Sequence record: PQ488502.1
Direction: 5' to 3' (one strand)
DNA: 64,000 nt
Source: Escherichia phage BUCT632
Every line of letters begins with the position of its first letter. Position 1 is the first letter of the stretch. The notes beneath the pieces were generated by a model, which did no database searches, was not told where the DNA came from, and saw only the letters and a program-made list of their open reading frames with translations. This document shows, in pieces, positions 3,132 to 12,935 of the stretch. The position numbers and the translations under genes are program-made.

Positions 3132-5977
3132 AGAAAATACTAGATAGTGCTAGAAACTACTTAAAAAATAATAGCAGAATAAAAACTGCTAGTCTAATTT
3201 CCCTAGAATTACCTGGCTCTACTGGTACTAGTACTGCTTTTATTTATTTAACTGATTATTTTAGAGATGTACTATATAATGGTATTTTGTACCAGGCCGG
3301 TAAGGTTAAGTCCATTAGCACACATAAACAAAATAGAGATTTATCTATTGGCAGTCTATCTTTTACTATTACAGGTACAGCGCAGGATGAAGTACTTAAA
3401 TTAGTGCAGAATGGTGTGTCCTTTTTAGATAGAATAGTATCAATCCACCAAGCAATTATTACAGAGGATGGTTCTATTTTACCGGTAGACCCAGACACAA
3501 ATGGCCCTTTATTATATTTTAGAGGGAGAATTACCGGTGGGGGTATTAAGGACAACATTAGTACTTCTGGGGTTGGAACCTCCACAATTACTTGGAATTG
3601 TTCTAACCAATTCTATGATTTTGATAGGGTTAATGGTAGATTTACTGACGATGCTTCTCATAGAGGGCTTGAGGTTGTAGCAGGGCAATTAGTTCCATCT
3701 AACGGGGCTAAAAGACTTGAGTACCAAGAAGATTATGGGTTCTTTCACGCCAATAAAAGTATCTCTATTCTAGCAAAATATCAGGTACAGGAAGAAAGAT
3801 ACAAGCTAAAGTCTAAGAAAAAACTATTTGGTTTATCTAGAAGCTATAGTCTTAAAAAGTATTATGAGACTGTTACTAAAGAAGTAGATATAGATTTTAA
3901 CCTTGCTGCTAAGTATATACCAGTAGTTTATGGTGTACAGAAAATACCGGGAATACCTATTTTTGCGGATACAGAATTACACAATCCTAATATAGTTTAT
4001 GTAGTATATGCTTTTGCTGAAGGAGAGATAGACGGTTTTCTTGACTTTTCCTTCGGGGATAACCCTATGATTTGTATGGACTCTAATGATAGCTCTGCTA
4101 GAACCTGTTTCGGTGTTAAAAAAGTAGCCGGAGACACCATGCAAAGAATAGCATCAGGAGTATCTTCTAGTAGTCCTTCTGTGCATGGTCAGGAATATAA
4201 GTATAATGATGGTAATGGTGATATAAGGATTTGGACTTATCATGGAAAAGCAGATCAAACGGCTTCTGAAGTATTAGTAAATATAGCGAAGGAACGTGGA
4301 TTCTATCTTCAAAATATGAACGGTAATGGGCCTGAGTACTGGGATGCTAGATATAAACTATTAGATACTGCATACGCGGTAGTACGCTTTACTATTAATG
4401 AAAATAGAACTGAGATCCCCGAAGTTAGTGCTGAGATTCAGGGTAAGAAGATAAAAATCTATCATTCTGATGGTAGAGTAACTGCTAATAGCACTAGTTT
4501 AAATGGTATCTGGCAAACACTTGATTACTTAACTTCAGATAGATACGGAGCTAACATTACTATTGATCAGTTCCCTCTTCAACAATTGATACAGGAAGCT
4601 GCTATCCTAGATATTATAGATGAATCTTACCAAGTATCCTGGCAGCCATACTGGAGATACGTTGGGTGGACTGATCCATTAGCAGAAAATAGACAAATAG
4701 TACAAATGAATACTATTCTAGATACATCTGAATCAGTATTTAAAAACGTGCAAGGTTTGTTAGAGTCCTACGGTGGGGCTATTAACAACTTATCTGGTCA
4801 ATATAGGATTACTGTAGAAAAATATTCTAATACTCCATTAGAGATTAATTTTCTAGATACTTATGGAGACTTGGAACTATCAGATACTACTGGTAGAAAC
4901 AAATTCAACTCAGTTCAAGCATCTATTGTAGACCCAGCTCTTAGCTGGAAGACTAACTCTATTACCTTTTACAACTCTAAATATAAAGAGCAAGATAAAA
5001 ATCTAGACAAAAAATTACAGTTATCTTTTGCAAATATAACTAACTACTATACTGCTAGAAGTTTTGCAGACAGAGAGCTTAAAAAATCTAGGTATTCTAG
5101 AACCCTCTCATTTTCTTTACCTTATCAATTCATTGGTATTGAGCCTAATGATGCTATTGCATTTACATACGACCGTTATGGATGGGATAAGAAATACTTT
5201 TTAGTAGATGAAGTAGAAAACTCTAGAGAAGGAAAGATAAATGTCACCCTACAGGAGTATGGAGAAGATGTATTTATCAACTCTGATCAAGTAGATAATA
5301 GTGGTAATGATATACCAGATATTAGTAACAATGTTCTTCCTCCTAGAGATTTTAAATATACTCCTACACCTGGTGGTTTAGTTGGTTCTATAGGAAAAAA
5401 TGGTGAGTTATCTTGGCTTCCAAGTTTAACTAATAACGTAGTTTATTACTCTATCGTGCATTCCGGTCATGCTGAGCCTTATATTGTGCAGCAACTAGAA
5501 ACAAATCCCAATGAACGCATGATCCAAGAGATAATTGGAGAGCCTGCAGGTTTAGCAATATTTGAAATAAGGGCTGTGGATATAAACGGTAGAAGAAGTT
5601 CTCCAGTAACATTATCTATAGAACTTAACTCTGCTAAAAACCTAAGCGTAGTATCTAATTTTAGAGTAACTAATACGGCCTCTGGGGATGTAACTGAGTT
5701 TGTCGGCCCAGATGTAAAACTAGCTTGGGATAGGATACCGGAAGAAGATATAATAGAAAGTATATTCTATACTCTGGAGATCTATGATTCTCAGAATAGA
5801 ATGCTAAGAAGTGTACGCATTGAAAATCAGTATACTTATGACTATTTATTAACGTATAATAAGGCAGATTTTGCTCTTCATAACAGTGGTGCTCTAGGGA
5901 TCAATAGAAAACTATATTTTCGTATTAGAGCAGAAGGAGATGATGGAGAACAGTCTGTGGAGTGGGCATCCATTTAA
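3128..5977 (+). CDS. Baseplate hub / tail tip protein (pb3-like), 949 aa
   Basis: 949-aa ORF matching the T5 pb3 size; position between Dit and the central fibre gene. Confidence 0.8.
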   Translation: MKKILDSARNYLKNNSRIKTASLISLELPGSTGTSTAFIYLTDYFRDVLYNGILYQAGKVKSISTHKQNRDLSIGSLSFTITGTAQDEVLKLVQNGVSFLDRIVSIHQAIITEDGSILPVDPDTNGPLLYFRGRITGGGIKDNISTSGVGTSTITWNCSNQFYDFDRVNGRFTDDASHRGLEVVAGQLVPSNGAKRLEYQEDYGFFHANKSISILAKYQVQEERYKLKSKKKLFGLSRSYSLKKYYETVTKEVDIDFNLAAKYIPVVYGVQKIPGIPIFADTELHNPNIVYVVYAFAEGEIDGFLDFSFGDNPMICMDSNDSSARTCFGVKKVAGDTMQRIASGVSSSSPSVHGQEYKYNDGNGDIRIWTYHGKADQTASEVLVNIAKERGFYLQNMNGNGPEYWDARYKLLDTAYAVVRFTINENRTEIPEVSAEIQGKKIKIYHSDGRVTANSTSLNGIWQTLDYLTSDRYGANITIDQFPLQQLIQEAAILDIIDESYQVSWQPYWRYVGWTDPLAENRQIVQMNTILDTSESVFKNVQGLLESYGGAINNLSGQYRITVEKYSNTPLEINFLDTYGDLELSDTTGRNKFNSVQASIVDPALSWKTNSITFYNSKYKEQDKNLDKKLQLSFANITNYYTARSFADRELKKSRYSRTLSFSLPYQFIGIEPNDAIAFTYDRYGWDKKYFLVDEVENSREGKINVTLQEYGEDVFINSDQVDNSGNDIPDISNNVLPPRDFKYTPTPGGLVGSIGKNGELSWLPSLTNNVVYYSIVHSGHAEPYIVQQLETNPNERMIQEIIGEPAGLAIFEIRAVDINGRRSSPVTLSIELNSAKNLSVVSNFRVTNTASGDVTEFVGPDVKLAWDRIPEEDIIESIFYTLEIYDSQNRMLRSVRIENQYTYDYLLTYNKADFALHNSGALGINRKLYFRIRAEGDDGEQSVEWASI

Positions 5978-8034
5978 TGATTTCGAATAATGCACCAGCC
6001 AAAATGGTCTTAAATAGTATAATGACTGGATATACAATGGCGTATGTCCAGCACTCTATATATACTGACTATGACGTTATTGGTAGATCTTTTTGGCTAA
6101 AGACAGGAGAAAGTATAGATAGACGTGATTACACCGGTATAGATACTTTCTTCGTAATGATTAATAATCTAACCCCCTCTACCTCCTATGAGATTCAGGG
6201 GGCTTTCTATGACTCAATTATTGACTCAGAGTTATTGGAAGCTAAGATTGGTATAAACTTATCTAATAAAACCACTTTTAGTACCAAGAGAAAACCCACT
6301 ATTACCTCCGCTAGATCAGAAGCTGATCCAGTAGACGTGGGTGTCGGAGCTCCTATAGTAGTTATAGAAACTACAGGAGAAGCCAGTTATTGTACTATTG
6401 AGTTAAAAAGTACTCAACCTTCAAATAGTCCATGGATAAAATATTATGTAGGTCCATTATCTCCCATTATTAGATTTGGTGGCGTACCTATTGGAGATTA
6501 TAAAGTACGCATATCTGGACAAGTTACTATGCCTGATGGTGTAACGGTAGACTCTTCTGGATATTTTGAATTTTCCAAAGTTCTTACTGTAGAGTATAAC
6601 TTTGTGCCACCTACTGCTCCTAGTAATATTACCTTCAAAGCTGCAAGAATTGCTGATGGTAAAGAACGCTACGACCTACGTGTACAATGGGACTGGGATA
6701 GAGGAGCTGGAGCAAATGTTCGAGAGTTTGTTGTTTCTTACATAGATTCAGCAGAATTTAAAAAGACTGGGTGGACTAAAGCTCAAAAAATCAACGTTGG
6801 AGCTGCACAGGCGGCAACTATTATATCCTTTCCGTGGAAAATTGAGCATAAGTTTAAGGTCTCTTCAATAGCCTGGGGTCCGGATGCCCAAGACGTAACA
6901 GATTCCGCAGTACAGACTTTTATACTGAATGAGGATACTCCTCTTGACAATAGTTTTGTTAATGAAACTGGTATTGAAGTAAACTATGCGTACATTAAGG
7001 GTAAGATTAAAGATGGTTCTACCTGGAAACAAACATTTTTAATCGATGCTGCTACCGGTGCTATTAACATAGGTCTTCTAGATGCAGAAGGAAAAGCACC
7101 AATATCTTTCGATCCTGTTAAGAAGATAATTAACGTTGATGGTAGTGTAATCACTAAAACTATAAACGCGGCTAACTTTGTAATGACTAACCTGACCGGT
7201 CAAGATAACCCGGCAATTTATACTCAAGGTAAAACTTGGGGTGATACAAAATCTGGTATCTGGATGGGAATGGATAATACTTCCGCTAAACCAAAGTTAG
7301 ATATAGGTAATGCTACTCAGTGGATACGCTATGATGGTACTACACTTCGTATTTCTAGTGGTGTTGTTATAGGAACTCCTAATGGTGACGTGGATCTTGG
7401 TACAGGTATGCAAGGTAAGCAAACGGTATTTGTTTACAAACTCGGTAAAAGCTTGCCTGCTAAACCTCTAGAACAAGATTACCCACCTCCTGGATGGTCT
7501 AAAACACCACCAAATCGTACTGATATGACCCAAAATATCTATGCTACTACTGGTACTCTAGATCCTGTTACTAATAAGTTATTAGAGGGTACTAGCTGGG
7601 CAGATGTGGTTCAATGGAGCGGTACTGAAGGTACTATAGGGCATGATGGACAACGTGGTCCTGGGATGTATTCCGTAGGTATAGCAGGTTTAGGTGGTTG
7701 GGATGATGGACAAGCTAATTCCTTCTTTCAAAGTAACTTCGGTTCCCCCCCAGTTAAATATGATGTATTAACTGAATTTAATAGTAATGCCCCCCAATCA
7801 GCATTTACAAGGCAATGGAATGGGTCTGGTTGGGTTAACCCTGCAATGGTTCTCCATGGAAACATGATTGTTAATGGGACGGTGACGGCAGATAAAATTG
7901 TAGCAGGAAATGCTTTCTTATCTCAGATCGGTGTTAACATCATTTATGATAGGAATGCTGCATTATCGGGAAACCCTGAGGCATACTACAAGATGAAGAT
8001 AGACCTAAATAGTGGGTATATCCATATAAGGTAA
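5977..8034 (+). CDS. Central straight fibre protein (pb4-like)
   Basis: About 685 aa; ATG at 5977 overlaps the pb3 stop (TAATG); Gly/Thr-rich beta-type sequence. Confidence 0.7.
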   Translation: MISNNAPAKMVLNSIMTGYTMAYVQHSIYTDYDVIGRSFWLKTGESIDRRDYTGIDTFFVMINNLTPSTSYEIQGAFYDSIIDSELLEAKIGINLSNKTTFSTKRKPTITSARSEADPVDVGVGAPIVVIETTGEASYCTIELKSTQPSNSPWIKYYVGPLSPIIRFGGVPIGDYKVRISGQVTMPDGVTVDSSGYFEFSKVLTVEYNFVPPTAPSNITFKAARIADGKERYDLRVQWDWDRGAGANVREFVVSYIDSAEFKKTGWTKAQKINVGAAQAATIISFPWKIEHKFKVSSIAWGPDAQDVTDSAVQTFILNEDTPLDNSFVNETGIEVNYAYIKGKIKDGSTWKQTFLIDAATGAINIGLLDAEGKAPISFDPVKKIINVDGSVITKTINAANFVMTNLTGQDNPAIYTQGKTWGDTKSGIWMGMDNTSAKPKLDIGNATQWIRYDGTTLRISSGVVIGTPNGDVDLGTGMQGKQTVFVYKLGKSLPAKPLEQDYPPPGWSKTPPNRTDMTQNIYATTGTLDPVTNKLLEGTSWADVVQWSGTEGTIGHDGQRGPGMYSVGIAGLGGWDDGQANSFFQSNFGSPPVKYDVLTEFNSNAPQSAFTRQWNGSGWVNPAMVLHGNMIVNGTVTADKIVAGNAFLSQIGVNIIYDRNAALSGNPEAYYKMKIDLNSGYIHIR

Positions 8035-8040
8035 TAAATA

Positions 8041-8463
8041 ATGAGTACTGAAAATAGAGTTATAGACTTAGTGATAGATGAGAAAGTACCTTATGGTCTA
8101 ATGATGCAATTCTTAGATGTTGATGATAGTACTTATCCGCATACAAATACCCCTGTTAACTTAACAGGGTATTCTCTAAGAGGTACTATAAAGACCAGTC
8201 TTGATGAGAATGCGGAAACTTTGGCATCTTTTACTACTAAAATTATTGATGCTGCTCAAGGTGCTATAGCCATAAGTTTGCCCGTAGAGGCGGTAGAGAA
8301 TATTGGTGCCAAAGCCACCAAAGAAAGAGATAAATATAATCCTCGCCAACGTTTTGCAGGATACTATGACATAATTATGACACGAGATGTCATAGGATCA
8401 GCTATTAGCTCCTTTCGTATAATGGAGGGTAAAGTATTTATCAGTGATGGGGTAACTAAATAA
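8041..8463 (+). CDS. Collar protein (p132-like), 140 aa
   Basis: 140-aa ORF immediately upstream of the tail fibre gene, same size as T5 p132. Confidence 0.65.
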
Positions 8464-10856
8464 TGGCAGTAACTACTAAAATTATTGTGCAACAAATACT
8501 GAATATAGATGATACGAAAGCTACTGCTAGTAAATTTCCTAGATACACCGTAATTCTTGGAAATTCTATTAGTTCTATTACTGCTAGTGAGTTAGTATCT
8601 TCTATAGAAGCCGCTGCTAAATCTGCTGCAGCGGCTAAAGATTCTGAAATAGCAGCTAAGACTTCAGAGCTTAATGCTAAGAACTCTGAACAGGAAGCTG
8701 CTATTTCTGCTGGAGCTTCTGAAGCTTCTGCTACTCAGTCTGCTACCTCTGCTACTCAGTCTGTCACTTCTGCTACTAAATCCGCAGAATCAGCTGCAGC
8801 TGCAAAAACCTCTGAAACCAATGCTAAGTCTAGTGAAACAAAAGCTAAAACTAGCGAAACTAACGCAAAAACTAGTGAAACAAAAGCTAAAACTAGCGAA
8901 ACTAATGCAAAAGCTAGTGAGGATAATGCAAAGGTCAGTGAGACTAATGCTGCCGCTTCTGCTGCAGCGGCAAAACTTAGTGAGGATAATGCAAAGGTCA
9001 GTGAGACTAATGCTGCCGCTTCTGCTGCGGATTCCAGTGGTTTTAGGAATGAGGCGGAAACATTCTCTACACAAGCTGCTACATCAGCTTCTGCTGCAAA
9101 AACCTCCGAAACAAAGGCTAAAACTAGCGAAACTAATGCAAAAGCTAGTGAGACTAAAGCCAAAGCTAGTGAGACTAACGCAGCTAGTTCCGCAACTTCA
9201 GCTAGTCAGTCAGTAACTACTATCCAAGGCTTAAAATCAGATGTTGAGCAACTAAAATCAGATACTCAGGCCATTAAAAACAGTGCTGTAACAGAGACAA
9301 CAGCTATAAAGGCAGATGTTGCGCAGTTAAAAACAGACACACAAGGCATTAAGAATAGCGCGATAACAGAAACTACCACGCTAAAAAACCAAGCTGCTAA
9401 TTCTGCAACTAGTGCTGCTAATTCTGCTACTGAAGCAGGAAAACAAGCTACTAGTGCTGCCAATAGTGCTAAGACTGCTAAGACTGAGGCCGACCGCTCA
9501 AAAACTGAGGCTGATAGATCAGAAGCTGCTGCTAATTCTACCCCCGACATTCAACCTCTTCCAGATGTATGGATACCGTTTAATGATTCTCTAGATATGA
9601 TTACAGGATTTTCACCTTCATATAAAAAGATTGTTATTGGTGACGATGAAATCACGATGCCTGGAGACAAGATTGTTAAATTTAAGCGAGCTTCAACTGC
9701 GACATATATTAATAAGTCTGGGGTGCTTACTAATGCTGCTATTGATGAACCTAGATTTGAAAAGGATGGTCTGCTCATTGAGGGGCAAAGAACAAACCTT
9801 CTTATAAATAGCACCAATCCTTCAAAATGGAACAAGTCATCAAATATGATCTTAGATAGATCAGGTGTAGATGATTTCGGATTCCAGTACGCAAAATTTA
9901 CATTAAAACCAGAAATGGTAGGGCAAACTTCAGCGATTAACATAGTAACCGTTTCCGGCAGTAGAGGTTTTGATGTAACAGGAAATGAAAAGTATGTAAC
10001 CATATCATGCAGGGCGCAAAGTGGGACTCCAAATTTAAGATGCCGATTACGATTTGAAAACTACGATGGATCTGCTTATACATTTTTGGGTGATGCTTAC
10101 GTAAATCTGACAGATTTATCAATTGAAAAAACTGGCGGCGCTGCAAATCGTATTACTGCAAGGGCTGTTAAAGATGAAGCAAGCAAATGGATTTTCTTTG
10201 AGGCAACAATTAAAGCGCTTGATACAGAAAATATGATCGGTGCAATGGTGCAGTATGCACCAGCAAAAGAGGGAGGGGGCACTGGTGCAGATGATTATAT
10301 TTATATTGCTACCCCTCAAGTTGAAGGCGGGGTGTGCGCTTCATCGTTTATTATTACAGAAGCGACTCCAGTAACACGGGCAAGCGATATGGTCACATTG
10401 CCAATAAAAAACAACCTTTACAATTTGCCATTTACAGTACTTGTGGAAGCTCATAAAAACTGGAGTATAACGCCAAATGCAGCGCCACGTGTTTTTGATA
10501 CCAGCGGTCATCAAACCGGAGCGGCTATTATTCTTGCTTTCGGATCTGCCGAAGGCGATAATGATGGATTCCCTTATTGCGATATAGGTAAATCAAACAG
10601 AAGGGTTTACGAAAATGCAAAACTAAAAAAGATGATCATGGGAATGAGAGTAAAGAGTGATTACAATAATTGCTGTGTAAGTAATGCCAGAATATCAAGC
10701 GAAACAAAAACGGAATGGAGATACATACAATCAACGGCTATTATAAGGATTGGAGGACAAACAAATACTGGAGAACGACATTTATTTGGCCATATCCGAA
10801 ACTTTAGAATCTGGCATAAGGAACTAACTGATAGACAAATGAAGGAGTATGTATGA
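8463..10856 (+). CDS. L-shaped tail fibre protein, proximal part (pb1-like N-terminus with a divergent C-terminal domain)
   Basis: N-terminus with Ser/Ala/Thr/Glu/Asn/Lys heptad-like repeats (TSETNAK/TSETKAK); C-terminal 400 aa globular; no C-terminal chaperone domain. Confidence 0.7.
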   Translation: MAVTTKIIVQQILNIDDTKATASKFPRYTVILGNSISSITASELVSSIEAAAKSAAAAKDSEIAAKTSELNAKNSEQEAAISAGASEASATQSATSATQSVTSATKSAESAAAAKTSETNAKSSETKAKTSETNAKTSETKAKTSETNAKASEDNAKVSETNAAASAAAAKLSEDNAKVSETNAAASAADSSGFRNEAETFSTQAATSASAAKTSETKAKTSETNAKASETKAKASETNAASSATSASQSVTTIQGLKSDVEQLKSDTQAIKNSAVTETTAIKADVAQLKTDTQGIKNSAITETTTLKNQAANSATSAANSATEAGKQATSAANSAKTAKTEADRSKTEADRSEAAANSTPDIQPLPDVWIPFNDSLDMITGFSPSYKKIVIGDDEITMPGDKIVKFKRASTATYINKSGVLTNAAIDEPRFEKDGLLIEGQRTNLLINSTNPSKWNKSSNMILDRSGVDDFGFQYAKFTLKPEMVGQTSAINIVTVSGSRGFDVTGNEKYVTISCRAQSGTPNLRCRLRFENYDGSAYTFLGDAYVNLTDLSIEKTGGAANRITARAVKDEASKWIFFEATIKALDTENMIGAMVQYAPAKEGGGTGADDYIYIATPQVEGGVCASSFIITEATPVTRASDMVTLPIKNNLYNLPFTVLVEAHKNWSITPNAAPRVFDTSGHQTGAAIILAFGSAEGDNDGFPYCDIGKSNRRVYENAKLKKMIMGMRVKSDYNNCCVSNARISSETKTEWRYIQSTAIIRIGGQTNTGERHLFGHIRNFRIWHKELTDRQMKEYV
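8916..9028 (+). repeat. Tandem direct duplication (two 50-bp copies, 63-bp period) inside the fibre rod region
   Basis: AGTGAGGATAATGCAAAGGTCAGTGAGACTAATGCTGCCGCTTCTGCTGC at 8916-8965 and again at 8979-9028. Confidence 0.85.
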
Positions 10857-11131
10857 GAGATATAATCCTAAAATTCACGGATAAATCAGCGTATAAAGAT
10901 TTTCTCCTAGAAATAGAGTGGGATAGTAATGAAACTTTACAAAACCAAATAATGCTTGATGAAATTGGCTATACTTATACTGAAATCTCTCCGCTAGGAG
11001 ATGAGGAGCCTAGATGCATCCGTAATGAAGGATACTATGTTAACGTAAGGATTCTTGATGAATCCTTTACTTACGAATACTTTGAGCCTTTTATAGTTCA
11101 GTTGGAACAGCCTCTTAGAGAGTGGGCATAA
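10853..11131 (+). CDS. Hypothetical protein (92 aa) between the two fibre genes
   Basis: ORF with overlapping start (ATGA); acidic. Confidence 0.5.
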   Translation: MRDIILKFTDKSAYKDFLLEIEWDSNETLQNQIMLDEIGYTYTEISPLGDEEPRCIRNEGYYVNVRILDESFTYEYFEPFIVQLEQPLREWA

Positions 11132-11140
11132 GGTTTTATA

Positions 11141-12880
11141 ATGGTAACTAAAACAGTAATTCCTACGGATATTACAAAACTTAAAAATGAGTCTCTTAAC
11201 AAGAATAATAACTTAAGCGACTTAGCAGATCGCGCAGCTGCGTGGCTAAATGTTCGTCCTATTGGATCTACTCCCCTTGCGGGAGACCCCGTTAATGATT
11301 ATGATGCTGTAACTAAGCGTTGGGTGGAGAACAAAATTAATACTGGCACAGTAGGACCCACAATGAATGGTGTCATGAACTATGGTGTAGGTGATTTTCA
11401 CCTTCGCGATAGCCGTGCGTATATTCAACCTTACGAGGTAGTTTCTGATGGGCAGCTTCTTAACAGGGCTGACTGGCCGGAGCTTTGGGCTTACGCTCAA
11501 ATGGTGGGGGCTATAGAGGATTCTGAATGGCTGGCTGATAAATTTCAGCGCGGCAAATACTCTAAAGGGAATGGAACAACTACATTCCGCGTTCCAGATA
11601 AGAATGGTGTACAAGATGGGTCAATACGCGCTCTTTATGGTCGTGGGGATGGAGGAAATAGCGGTGCAAATGGCCAGCTATTTGAATCTGCTGCACCAAA
11701 TATTACAGGTTATTTTACCACTTATTCCCAGGGTAGTTACGCGCAGGCTATTGGCACATCTTATGGTGCATTCTTTTCTGATAATGCGATTTTTCCTAAT
11801 GGTGATGGGGATGCGATTCCAGGTACAGGAAATATTGCAATACCAGGCCGCTATAACACATGTAATTTCGACGCTTCACGCTCCAGTCCAATTTACGGGG
11901 CATCAACTGATGAGATTCTTACACGAAACTTTGTAGGTGTATGGGTAATCCGCGCATCAGGCGGGTTCGTTGCTGCGAATACGTCGTGGAGTGTTAAGAA
12001 TGCAGATAGTAGTACACCTCCACAGAATACCTCCGTTCGTGGTGGTGAAGTAGTATCGGAATACTCCAATCCAGCAGGTAAGCGGTTTGCTCGTCTATAC
12101 TCTGATATTATCTGGGGCTCCTCGGGGGCGGCGATTATTGAGGCTGAGGGCTCTGCTAAGCACTCCTATAAGTTTTACGAAGATGGTACAGTAGACTTCC
12201 GCCAGTCAGGGAAGATTAACACCTTTCATATGCACACTCCTATGGGTACATGGAATGGTATTACGGATGCAGGAGTGAACAACCTAAGTACCAACGGCAT
12301 GGATAGGATAGCCATTGCGAGCGGTTCCGACACACTCATTCGTGGTTATTCTATCGGTGGGTATCGCCCTAACGGATACCCCACCAAGGTTGGATACCAT
12401 ATGTATATTCCAGGCAATAATGCATTTGGTATAGGTTGCGTGGTAATCGGTGGAGATAACGGTAAATTCTGTCGATACTTCCTTGACATTGATGGTCAAA
12501 TATATGGTTCGACTGATTACGGGAACTTTAGTTATACAAAAAATGGTACTTCTGACTCACGTGTAAAACACGGCATCGCCCCTGTTGGAGTTGACAAATC
12601 ATACTCTAATATTAAAGGACTGGAATTTGTAGAGTTCATTTATGACAATGACGAACAAAATCGAGTTCGGCATGGCGTGATTGCACAGCAAGCAGAGGTT
12701 GTTGAGCCTTTGTATGTTAAGACGCGCAAATATGTTGGCAATAATCCAGGAGAGGTTGTGGAGCAGAAGGAGCTGGACACCACGCCGATGCTTCTGGATA
12801 CCATGCACGTTGTGCAGGTATTGATGCAGAGGATCGAAGCGATGGAAGCTGAGATTGCGGAATTAAAGGCAAGTAAGTAA
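11141..12880 (+). CDS. Tail fibre protein with phage tail-collar-like domain and C-terminal intramolecular chaperone (peptidase S74-like) domain
   Basis: LLNRADWPELWAYAQ motif typical of tail fibre collar domains; C-terminal ...GVIAQQAEVVEPLYV...EAMEAEIAELK resembles the autoproteolytic chaperone of T5 pb1 and endosialidases. Confidence 0.7.
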   Translation: MVTKTVIPTDITKLKNESLNKNNNLSDLADRAAAWLNVRPIGSTPLAGDPVNDYDAVTKRWVENKINTGTVGPTMNGVMNYGVGDFHLRDSRAYIQPYEVVSDGQLLNRADWPELWAYAQMVGAIEDSEWLADKFQRGKYSKGNGTTTFRVPDKNGVQDGSIRALYGRGDGGNSGANGQLFESAAPNITGYFTTYSQGSYAQAIGTSYGAFFSDNAIFPNGDGDAIPGTGNIAIPGRYNTCNFDASRSSPIYGASTDEILTRNFVGVWVIRASGGFVAANTSWSVKNADSSTPPQNTSVRGGEVVSEYSNPAGKRFARLYSDIIWGSSGAAIIEAEGSAKHSYKFYEDGTVDFRQSGKINTFHMHTPMGTWNGITDAGVNNLSTNGMDRIAIASGSDTLIRGYSIGGYRPNGYPTKVGYHMYIPGNNAFGIGCVVIGGDNGKFCRYFLDIDGQIYGSTDYGNFSYTKNGTSDSRVKHGIAPVGVDKSYSNIKGLEFVEFIYDNDEQNRVRHGVIAQQAEVVEPLYVKTRKYVGNNPGEVVEQKELDTTPMLLDTMHVVQVLMQRIEAMEAEIAELKASK

Positions 12881-12886
12881 ATAAAA

Positions 12887-12916
12887 ACCCCAATGGATTT
12901 TGTCCATTGGGGTTTT
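12887..12916. terminator. Bidirectional terminator hairpin between convergent tail fibre and dut genes
   Basis: CCCCAATGGA-TTTT-GTCCATTGGGG flanked by A-run and T-run. Confidence 0.75.
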
Positions 12917-12935
12917 TATTTATTTGATATGTAAA

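Follow-up and report, generated by a model that had tools for sequence, protein, structure and literature searches.

What kind of lateral tail fibre does Escherichia phage BUCT632 carry, and from which parts is it put together? The question is raised by three consecutive open reading frames (ORFs) on the plus strand of the 64,000-nucleotide stretch of its genome analysed here (sequence record PQ488502.1; hereafter, the window), which encode proteins of 797 aa (8463..10856), 92 aa (10853..11131) and 579 aa (11141..12880). A preliminary description of this DNA, made from the sequence alone, placed the same three ORFs at 8463-12880 and took them for the locus of an L-shaped lateral fibre of a T5-like phage, with two large proteins and a 92-aa gene between them; this much is confirmed. 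The window is a segment of a Tequintavirus (T5-like) genome, the 24 kb downstream of the fibre locus being ~97% identical to many Tequintavirus genomes. The locus encodes a lateral tail fibre of several proteins and is likely to be a host-range determinant. Comparison with other phages suggests that it very probably specifies a composite L-shaped Tequintavirus fibre of the IrisVonRoten type, in which the 797-aa protein would be the proximal part, the 579-aa protein a distal part docked on it, and the 92-aa protein an assembly or joint factor.

The proximal and distal fibre proteins

IrisVonRoten (Bas32, MZ501075), a phage of the same genus, has in the same slot the genes bas32_0022, bas32_0023 and bas32_0024, encoding proteins of 796, 92 and 574 aa that are 83% (over 797 aa), 93% and 53% identical to the proximal, small and distal proteins of the window, respectively. 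According to Humolli 2025, the proximal protein of this phage, Gp22, has a galectin-like C-terminal domain, and its T-shaped protein, Gp24, is modelled with a Gp12-like receptor-binding domain (RBD1), a T5-like RBD2 and an intramolecular chaperone (IMC); the same T-shaped protein is described in Wifcevirus and Gordonclarkvirinae (PMC11990801). The proteins of the window agree with this type in that the proximal one is a full-length homologue with a lectin-type C-terminus, for which the galectin label is taken from PMC11990801, and the distal one is homologous both to Gp24 and to the T-shaped fibre of ManiWeber (Bas99, Wifcevirus; 76.7% identity). With regard to the Gp12-like label, Pfam Collar gives E of 9.4, and the profile of the distal fibre matches no gp12 entry of the PDB. 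The first ~120 aa of the distal proteins of the window and IrisVonRoten are near-identical (93-100% in 30-aa windows), and the two share the conserved blocks and the IMC. At aa 180-260 and 300-470, where the window has sequences of another allele family, identity drops to 10-30%, and the proximal lectin module is 75% identical over the last 430 aa. Because the receptor-binding parts differ from those of IrisVonRoten, the host specificity is expected to differ from O16. The preliminary description also suggested that the locus may define a branched fibre; however, the architecture has already been published for IrisVonRoten (PMC11990801), so that the locus of the window defines no new fibre type.

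The proximal protein begins with an anchor of the pb1/LtfA class. BLASTP aligns its residues 1-234 with residues 1-205 of T5 pb1, at 51% identity over ~205 aa of anchor and heptad rod, and its residues 1-191 with residues 1-205 of DT57C LtfA, at 56% identity; aa 1-233 match LtfA, chain d of the PDB entry 8hqz, with E of 3e-37, and a tblastn search against DT57C LtfA recovers aa 1-74 only. The gene directly follows ltfC/p132 and precedes dut, a position that together with the N-terminal homology places the protein in this class. An N-terminal anchor of the LtfA type enters the LtfC collar (PMC10713586), and the 797-aa protein, presumably a trimer, would be held in the collar by its own N-terminus, run on as a heptad rod and end in a beta-sandwich of the gene transfer agent (GTA) spike type followed by a LamG/galectin-like end. 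From about residue 257 onward, it is unrelated to pb1 and LtfA; the protein lacks Peptidase_S74 and has no Pfam match at E <= 0.1. A pb1-like anchor and rod joined to a different, chaperone-less C-terminus, as the preliminary description had it, are thus supported by the alignments and Pfam. T5 differs in having a single fibre polypeptide, pb1 (1396 aa), which includes an IMC with the shared motif T|S-D-x-R-x-K; in the window, anchor and rod reside in one protein and tip and IMC in another, and the middle part and the RBD are unrelated to pb1 by sequence.

The C-terminal part of the 797-aa protein is homologous to side fibres of other phage groups, namely KarlBarth gp28 of Dhillonvirus (52% identity), AV105 of Drexlerviridae (94% over the last 435 aa), Dru_SM1 and BRET of Queuovirinae, CarlMeissner of Vequintavirus (45%), and Stf-like proteins with a PF08400 N-terminus from lambdoid E. 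coli prophages. Altogether, 2657 database proteins match it at E <= 1e-3, so that what had been considered a divergent receptor-binding module is instead a very common, horizontally mobile one. Within this module, aa 438-640 (9774..10382) are recognised as a beta-sandwich domain by the NCBIfam model NF048003, “GTA head spike fiber”, above the cut-off (59.4 bits compared to 36; model positions 1-181 of 182). A phmmer search detects similarity to Rcc01080 from RcGTA (PDB 6tb9; Bardy 2020) with E of 1e-5, the homologous region spanning residues ~407-655. Rcc01080 is a lectin-like, beta-rich protein for which binding to capsular polysaccharide has been shown experimentally (PMC10218006). The 325 aa of Rcc01080 decorate the head and are held there by 10 residues at the N-terminus, whereas the counterpart in the window is the C-terminal module of a tail fibre.

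An AlphaFold2 (AF2) model of residues 357-797 is confident for residues ~451-621 (pLDDT, the predicted local distance difference test, 82-94; overall mean 55), and a Foldseek search started with this model identifies the tail fibres of Pa193 and E217 as well as jelly-roll lectin-type domains, including BoNT Hc, neurexin LNS and CBM4. The protein appears to close with LamG/ConA-like strands at aa 746-792 (10698..10838) containing the motif LFGHIRNFRIWHKELTDRQM, a region that Pfam Laminin_G_3 matches below the cut-off; the motif is kept in all homologues of the 797-aa protein, including IME178, BRET and CarlMeissner. The module is lectin-like, and therefore the C-terminus does not lack a receptor-binding fold, an outcome against which the preliminary description had cautioned; it might be able to bind a surface glycan on its own.

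The distal protein has its counterpart in the distal half of LtfA from DT57C (residues 511-1076), with 45% identity overall and ~100% over aa 20-120; LtfA aa 526-1074 of the PDB entry 8hqz match it with E of 8e-137, and the identity to DT57C LtfB 206-788 is 44%. Among other homologues, the fibre of IME178 is 92% identical, BRET_25 of Nonagvirus 87%, and the fibres of SU10-type Gordonclarkvirinae ~65%. Windowed identities and an alignment of distal fibres reveal two invariant blocks, aa 35-187 and a strand block at aa 264-285, with variable parts in the loop at aa ~180-260 and at aa ~300-470 and a moderately conserved C-terminal domain. The shaft and the Gp12-like RBD1 region are assigned to aa ~40-290 (11258..12010) from the alignment blocks, windowed identities and homology, and the variable distal region, aa ~300-470 (12038..12550), is taken for the T5-like RBD2 from windowed identities, the label coming from PMC11990801. 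In the latter region, identity is 20-30% to Baret, IrisVonRoten and DT57C compared to 80-100% to IME178 and ~85% to ManiWeber. RBD1 of IrisVonRoten Gp24 and ManiWeber Gp114 was assigned to SSF88874 by Humolli 2025 (PMC11990801). By windowed identity, the variability of the distal fibre falls where receptor-binding domains are expected, at aa 180-260 and 300-470, and the protein would bear two variable receptor-binding regions. The motif LLNRADWPELWAYAQ, described earlier as being of the tail-collar type, is indeed present at aa 106-120, within the conserved block that precedes the variable loop of RBD1, but Pfam Collar is matched only with E of 9.4.

The C-terminal domain of the distal protein (aa 471-579; 12551..12877) is a Peptidase_S74 IMC. 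Pfam PF13884 matches aa 471-523 with 34.7 bits compared to the cut-off of 22, and a profile of the distal family identifies the IMCs of MYRF (7dc3, E of 2e-8), S16 (6f45) and GA-1 (3gud). That the chaperone belongs to the second protein only, as noted before, is consistent with the Pfam results for the two proteins. The autocleavage site, which the preliminary description singled out for inspection, is intact: T470|S471-D-S-R-V-K476 aligns with T1263|S1264-D-A-R-L-K1269 of T5 pb1, and both the serine nucleophile S471 and the lysine five residues downstream, K476, are present. The T1263|S1264 position is the one at which, following Garcia-Doval 2015, we take pb1 to be cleaved. The distal fibre would accordingly fold with its own S74 chaperone and then cleave itself between T470 and S471 by means of a predicted S471/K476 dyad, leaving a mature protein of 470 aa.

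A separate observation concerns the segment NNLSDLADRAAAWLNVRPIGSTPLAGDP (window 11200-11260; aa 21-40 of the distal protein), which is where homology to IME178, DT57C LtfA and LtfB, ManiWeber and KarlBarth gp30 starts, whatever lies upstream. The segment resembles a junction at which adaptor and fibre body have recombined repeatedly.

The small protein and the N-terminal motif of the distal fibre

The 92-aa ORF is preceded by AAGGAG 7 nt upstream of its start and shares an ATGA overlap with the stop codon of the proximal fibre gene, which points to translational coupling between the two. Its product belongs to phrog_1361 (E of 2.6e-33), an uncharacterised family, and matches no Pfam or NCBIfam profile. 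The AF2 model (pLDDT 81) has a beta-alpha-alpha-beta-beta arrangement with a disordered C-terminal end, and a C-terminal P-L-R-x-W-A sequence is invariant in the family. Structural comparison yields no informative neighbours for this model, and the protein resembles none of the known fibre chaperones (lambda Tfa, P2 G, T4 gp38, gp57A) in sequence or fold. A profile search of 1.84 billion representatives identifies just 80 clusters of the family, mostly stand-alone proteins of 85-110 aa; fusions of this domain to fibre proteins, which would be of the Rosetta-stone kind, were sought among the same representatives and none was found.

The profile of the family also matches 4-13 stretches each in giant non-phage proteins of 1360-6112 aa (P0167, P0168, P0174, P0182, P0194 and P0195). 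The repeats of these proteins are PKD domains (Pfam PKD_4 in P0195), and the common pattern is L-x-F-x-D...I-D/E-W...Y-x-V-x-V-R-I-x-D. Because the fold that AF2 gives to the 92-aa protein is not Ig-like, this likeness is probably a motif-level coincidence summed over the repeats or, otherwise, a very remote relationship.

The genomic context of the family was analysed in 90 loci that contain a homologue of the 92-aa protein, namely the window, GenBank loci and 80 loci from IMG/VR. The next gene begins with M-x-T-x-T-x-I-P-x-D-I-x-x-L-K in 76 of the 90 loci, and in 71 of these 76 the spacing between the small ORF and the motif gene is fixed at 9 nt. In the window, the motif is MVTKTVIPTDITKLK (11141..11185, plus strand). 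The sequence behind the motif varies completely from locus to locus: it can be a T-shaped fibre of 580 aa, a coiled-coil and S74 protein of 230-350 aa, or a stub of 90 aa. The cassette is found in T5-like, Warwickvirus, Dhillonvirus, Seuratvirus and Nonagvirus phages and in lambdoid prophages, that is, in at least six groups. For example, Dhillonvirus KarlBarth (gp28-31), Warwickvirus AV105, Queuovirinae BRET (BRET_23-25) and Dru_SM1, and lambdoid prophages combine a lectin-type module 35-94% identical to that of the window with a small ORF of the same family and a next gene that starts with the same motif, BRET_25 being 87% identical to the 579-aa protein over the full length. These cassettes differ from the window in having lineage-specific anchors (lambda Stf-type PF08400 and others) in place of pb1/LtfA, and many of them encode short coiled-coil and S74 distal proteins rather than the T-shaped type.

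The exceptions are of several kinds. Eight prophage-like loci combine the proximal fibre with the small ORF and lack a distal gene; the downstream proteins of IME178 and CarlMeissner are different; three loci stop before the downstream gene; and in Dru_SM1 the distal gene is disrupted. In the eight distal-less loci (L022, L024-L029 and L031, all IMG/VR prophage-like; positions ~4001-4600), the next gene encodes a hydrophobic protein of ~97 aa (MDISPLLHALCAVAAQ...), and the same protein comes after the distal gene in a complete prophage locus (L013, E. coli GCA_932750745.1). In the same prophage, a cytolethal distending toxin (CDT) operon (CDtoxinA, Exo_endo_phos, CDtoxinA; 7980-10080) lies directly downstream of the fibre cassette. 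The broken distal genes of Dru_SM1 (L009, 4751-6084) and VSe12 (L014, IMG/VR; 4289-5230) retain the motif in an ORF of 25 or 64 aa, with the remainder in another frame, and the frameshifts in these two published genomes could be real pseudogenes or sequencing errors.

Taken together, the conserved synteny provides good comparative evidence that the 15-residue N-terminus may be an adaptor that plugs the distal fibre onto the cassette; in the window, the 579-aa protein would thereby dock on the end of the proximal fibre. The conserved small ORF and this motif are what takes the locus beyond routine annotation. A literature search on T-shaped fibres or the small protein yielded no follow-up beyond PMC11990801.

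Two roles can be envisaged for the 92-aa protein, which, being co-translated with the proximal fibre, would most likely either assist the assembly of that fibre or form a small part of the joint. We give the assembly factor somewhat better than an even chance and regard the structural component as a credible but less probable second. In the latter case, the protein would be a virion connector between the proximal and distal fibres rather than a non-structural chaperone, a possible if doubtful reading that several features favour: the gene is always located between two fibre genes, with the fixed spacing to the distal gene; the invariant P-L-R-x-W-A is C-terminal, predicted to be disordered and reminiscent of a docking peptide; the small protein of IrisVonRoten is annotated “tail fiber protein”; and the sequence of the protein tracks the phage lineage rather than the exchanged lectin module. 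Yet the gene is kept in the loci that lack a distal gene as well as in CarlMeissner and IME178, where the distal gene does not begin with the motif; the protein has no fold likeness to known connectors; and its gene directly follows a chaperone-less fibre gene, a position typical of fibre assembly proteins such as lambda Tfa, T4 gp38 and P2 G.

A co-variation of the 92-aa protein with the lectin module, as expected of a chaperone and its client and suggested by a small table, is rejected, the Spearman correlation over 62 distinct loci being 0.00. The 92-aa protein follows the phage lineage, and the lectin module is swapped independently.

As a tentative generalisation, to which we assign less than an even chance, the 92-aa protein and the M-x-T-x-T-x-I-P-x-D-I-x-x-L-K start could constitute a portable fibre-to-fibre joint that accepts almost any distal fibre on a lectin-ended proximal fibre. 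If so, T5-like, T1-like, Dhillonvirus and Queuovirinae phages as well as lambdoid prophages would make use of the joint, the 92-aa protein would represent a new class of joint or assembly proteins with a P-L-R-x-W-A docking peptide, and, if confirmed, the joint would offer a defined splice point for engineering fibres of new specificity.

Other possible arrangements of the fibre

Several observations weigh against a fibre of the IrisVonRoten type as outlined above. For docking site, T shape and stoichiometry, the source is a published AlphaFold-Multimer prediction for the homologue, not an experiment (PMC11990801). The AF2 model of the proximal C-terminus is poor outside aa 451-621, so that no fold is claimed for the flanks, and the Laminin_G_3 match (PF13385) is sub-threshold, with 14.3 bits compared to 27.6 and E of 0.047, and covers the last third of the model only. 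Pfam Collar (PF07484) is likewise below the threshold in the distal fibre (aa 139-155), and a comparison of the 11-sequence distal-fibre profile with the PDB identifies IMC domains only, with no gp12 or pb1 receptor-binding domain among the matches. The role of the 92-aa protein is backed by no family or fold match, and its sequence does not track the proximal lectin module among the 62 loci compared. Finally, IME178 combines a related proximal C-terminal stretch and a small ORF with a different distal N-terminus of 150 aa; the 15-aa motif is therefore not the sole possible adaptor.

An alternative is a branched fibre of the DT57C type, in which the 797-aa protein would be an LtfA with its own tip and the 579-aa protein an LtfB branching from the middle of the former through a contact of the phiEco32 gp14/gp15 type. 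There is a likeness, given that DT57C and DT571/2 also have a two-protein lateral tail fibre in a T5-like phage, with the same LtfC collar, an LtfA anchor and an S74 IMC (Golomidova 2016, PMC4728585; Ayala 2023, PDB 8hqz). The two large fibre genes of the window occupy the ltfA/ltfB slot, the identities to LtfA 1-205 and LtfB 206-788 reach 56% and 44%, respectively, and glycan-binding domains are plausible in both proteins. The branch of DT57C, however, depends on a phiEco32-gp14-like region, LtfA aa 223-471, and on the gp15-like N-terminus of LtfB, aa 1-45 (PMC4728585), and neither has a counterpart here: the BLASTP alignment of the 797-aa protein stops at LtfA 205, and that of the 579-aa protein begins at LtfB 206, with MVTKTVIPTDITKLK in place of the LtfB N-terminus. 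Furthermore, both DT57C proteins end in S74, whereas in the window this domain is found in the 579-aa protein only, the proximal protein having a lectin module instead, and a 92-aa gene separates the fibre genes. The distal protein fits the distal half of LtfA, with the near-identical stretch over aa 20-120, better than it fits LtfB. The analogy with LtfA and LtfB drawn in the preliminary description thus breaks down at the docking modules, and because these are absent, the locus is assigned to the IrisVonRoten type rather than to the DT57C type; a DT57C-type branch is improbable. The arrangement in the window is probably serial, with a lectin domain protruding from the side, and not a branch of the LtfB kind.

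It is just as improbable that the two proteins form independent fibres, the 797-aa one being complete by itself and the 579-aa one mounted elsewhere on the tail. The eight prophage-like loci with a proximal fibre and a small ORF but no distal gene imply that the proximal protein can exist without a distal partner, and in cryo-EM of DT57C, weak additional densities close to the tip of the tail were read as LtfB folded back onto the tip (PMC10713586). On the other side, the motif travels with the cassette across unrelated tails, those of siphoviruses of four groups and of lambdoid prophages, so that the partner of the motif is to be sought within the cassette rather than in a lineage-specific tail, and the 15-aa N-terminus is too short for a baseplate-binding domain like that of ManiWeber (PMC11990801). 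An assembly or sequencing artefact, that is, a single fibre gene frameshifted into ORFs of 797, 92 and 579 aa, as which the preliminary description allowed the locus might be exposed, has a negligible chance of being true and is rejected: although residues 1-191 of the 797-aa protein and 3-579 of the 579-aa protein are colinear with DT57C LtfA 1-205 and 511-1076, LtfA has no counterpart of ~600 aa in the 797-aa protein or of the entire 92-aa ORF, every ORF starts independently, with a Shine-Dalgarno sequence or a coupling overlap, the 92-aa protein is a conserved family, and the three intact genes recur in many independently sequenced phages and prophages, including IrisVonRoten, Baret, L6jm, Stokescottia and ~80 further loci.

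With the composite fibre of the IrisVonRoten type retained, the expected role of the structure is that it would mediate reversible binding to the O-antigen or another surface polysaccharide and thereby shape the host range.

Mosaic composition, rod repeats and neighbouring genes

In no published phage does a match of high identity extend over >80% of the locus. Proximal fibre and small ORF resemble those of Baret (92% at the nucleotide level): in Baret (OR896834), the proximal fibre is 95.6% and the small ORF 93% identical to those of the window, whereas the distal fibre is 61% identical overall and has other RBDs. The receptor-binding parts of the distal fibre resemble those of IME178, AZ21/23 and BRET, and RBD2 is ~85% identical to that of ManiWeber. 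In IME178 (MZ398246), the 92% identity of the distal fibre extends from aa 15 to the end, but the proximal C-terminus is different, the small ORF is only 31% identical, and the distal N-terminus is the 150-aa one mentioned above. Among 15 billion collected proteins, there is an exact copy of the 92-aa sequence, but of neither the 797-aa nor the 579-aa sequence. What the locus presents is thus a known type of fibre in a new combination of alleles, the three parts of which occur together in no single published phage, and this mosaic of a Baret-like proximal part and IME178/BRET/ManiWeber-like distal RBDs exemplifies the reshuffling of modules across phage families.

It is the lateral fibre that determines through which types of O-antigen or capsule a T5-like phage can pass, and alleles of this locus could therefore serve as a practical host-range predictor in therapy and biocontrol. 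The host specificity itself is not readable from the sequence; the closest relatives of the RBDs belong to phages whose isolation hosts were E. coli K-12, O157, chicken isolates and Salmonella. In GenBank, “Campylobacter phage C13/A12a” and several “Listeria phage” entries contain fibre loci and backbones of T5-like or rV5-like coliphages, and their host labels look unreliable.

The rod of the proximal fibre consists of heptad (21-bp) repeats with the consensus S-E-T-x-A-K-x at aa 61-256 (8643..9230), for which Tandem Repeats Finder (TRF) reports periods of 21, 42 and 63 and which form the repeat families D1 and D2. Embedded in this array are two 63-bp (21-aa) units (8907..9032) with an identical inner segment. 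The repeat, given as 50 bp in the preliminary description, is real and amounts to an exact 51-mer (8915-8965 = 8978-9028) at an offset of 63 bp; TRF describes it as a period of 63 with 1.9 copies and 96% matches. Other in-phase pairs of units in the array are just 60-77% alike, so that the 51-bp identity is far above the background. In Baret, which is closest to the window in this gene, the same two 63-bp units are present and differ at 11 of 63 positions, Baret unit 2 being identical to unit 2 of the window; unit 1 of the window has the edges of Baret unit 1 (positions 7-8 and the last six bases), whereas its inner 51 nt are those of unit 2. The proximal proteins are of nearly the same length (797 compared to 796 aa), and the patch alters two residues relative to Baret.

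A recent duplication is rejected, given that both units pre-exist in Baret, and the recent repeat-mediated length variation proposed earlier gives way, upon comparison with Baret and IrisVonRoten, to a conversion that left the length unchanged. By this comparison of the units, the 51-bp identity is most readily explained as a short gene-conversion tract between older units. The conversion patch shows that the rod array is recombinationally active; the proximal fibres of relatives differ in length through the rod, from 729 to 797 aa. Immediately past the heptad array, at window positions 9231-9400 (aa 257-312), there is a second type of repeat of ~22 aa, LKSDVEQLKSDTQAIKNSAVTETTAIKADVAQLKTDTQGIKNSAITETTTLKNQ, which is shared with the fibre of Dhillonvirus KarlBarth; similar “DVSTLKQD” repeats are found in short distal proteins of HMD-P4 and AV105.

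The genes surrounding the locus follow the order pb4, LtfC and the 797-aa, 92-aa and 579-aa ORFs on the plus strand, then a terminator, with convergent genes for dUTPase and a flap endonuclease beyond; the succession of pb4, LtfC, fibre genes and dUTPase is the same as in T5 and DT57C. The pb4 gene (5962-8034, plus strand) is identified by four PB4 Pfam domains. It is followed by the gene for the 140-aa collar protein LtfC/p132 (8041..8463, plus strand; Pfam PF23926, E of 4.5e-14, above the cut-off), which corresponds in position to T5p132 and DT57C ltfC; LtfC is the ring that receives the N-termini of the fibres, and its gene neighbours the three-ORF locus while lying outside its coordinates. 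A terminator scan identifies a bidirectional hairpin with a perfect 20-bp stem flanked by an A-run and a T-run (12878..12922); it starts where the distal fibre gene has its stop codon and could terminate both convergent units.

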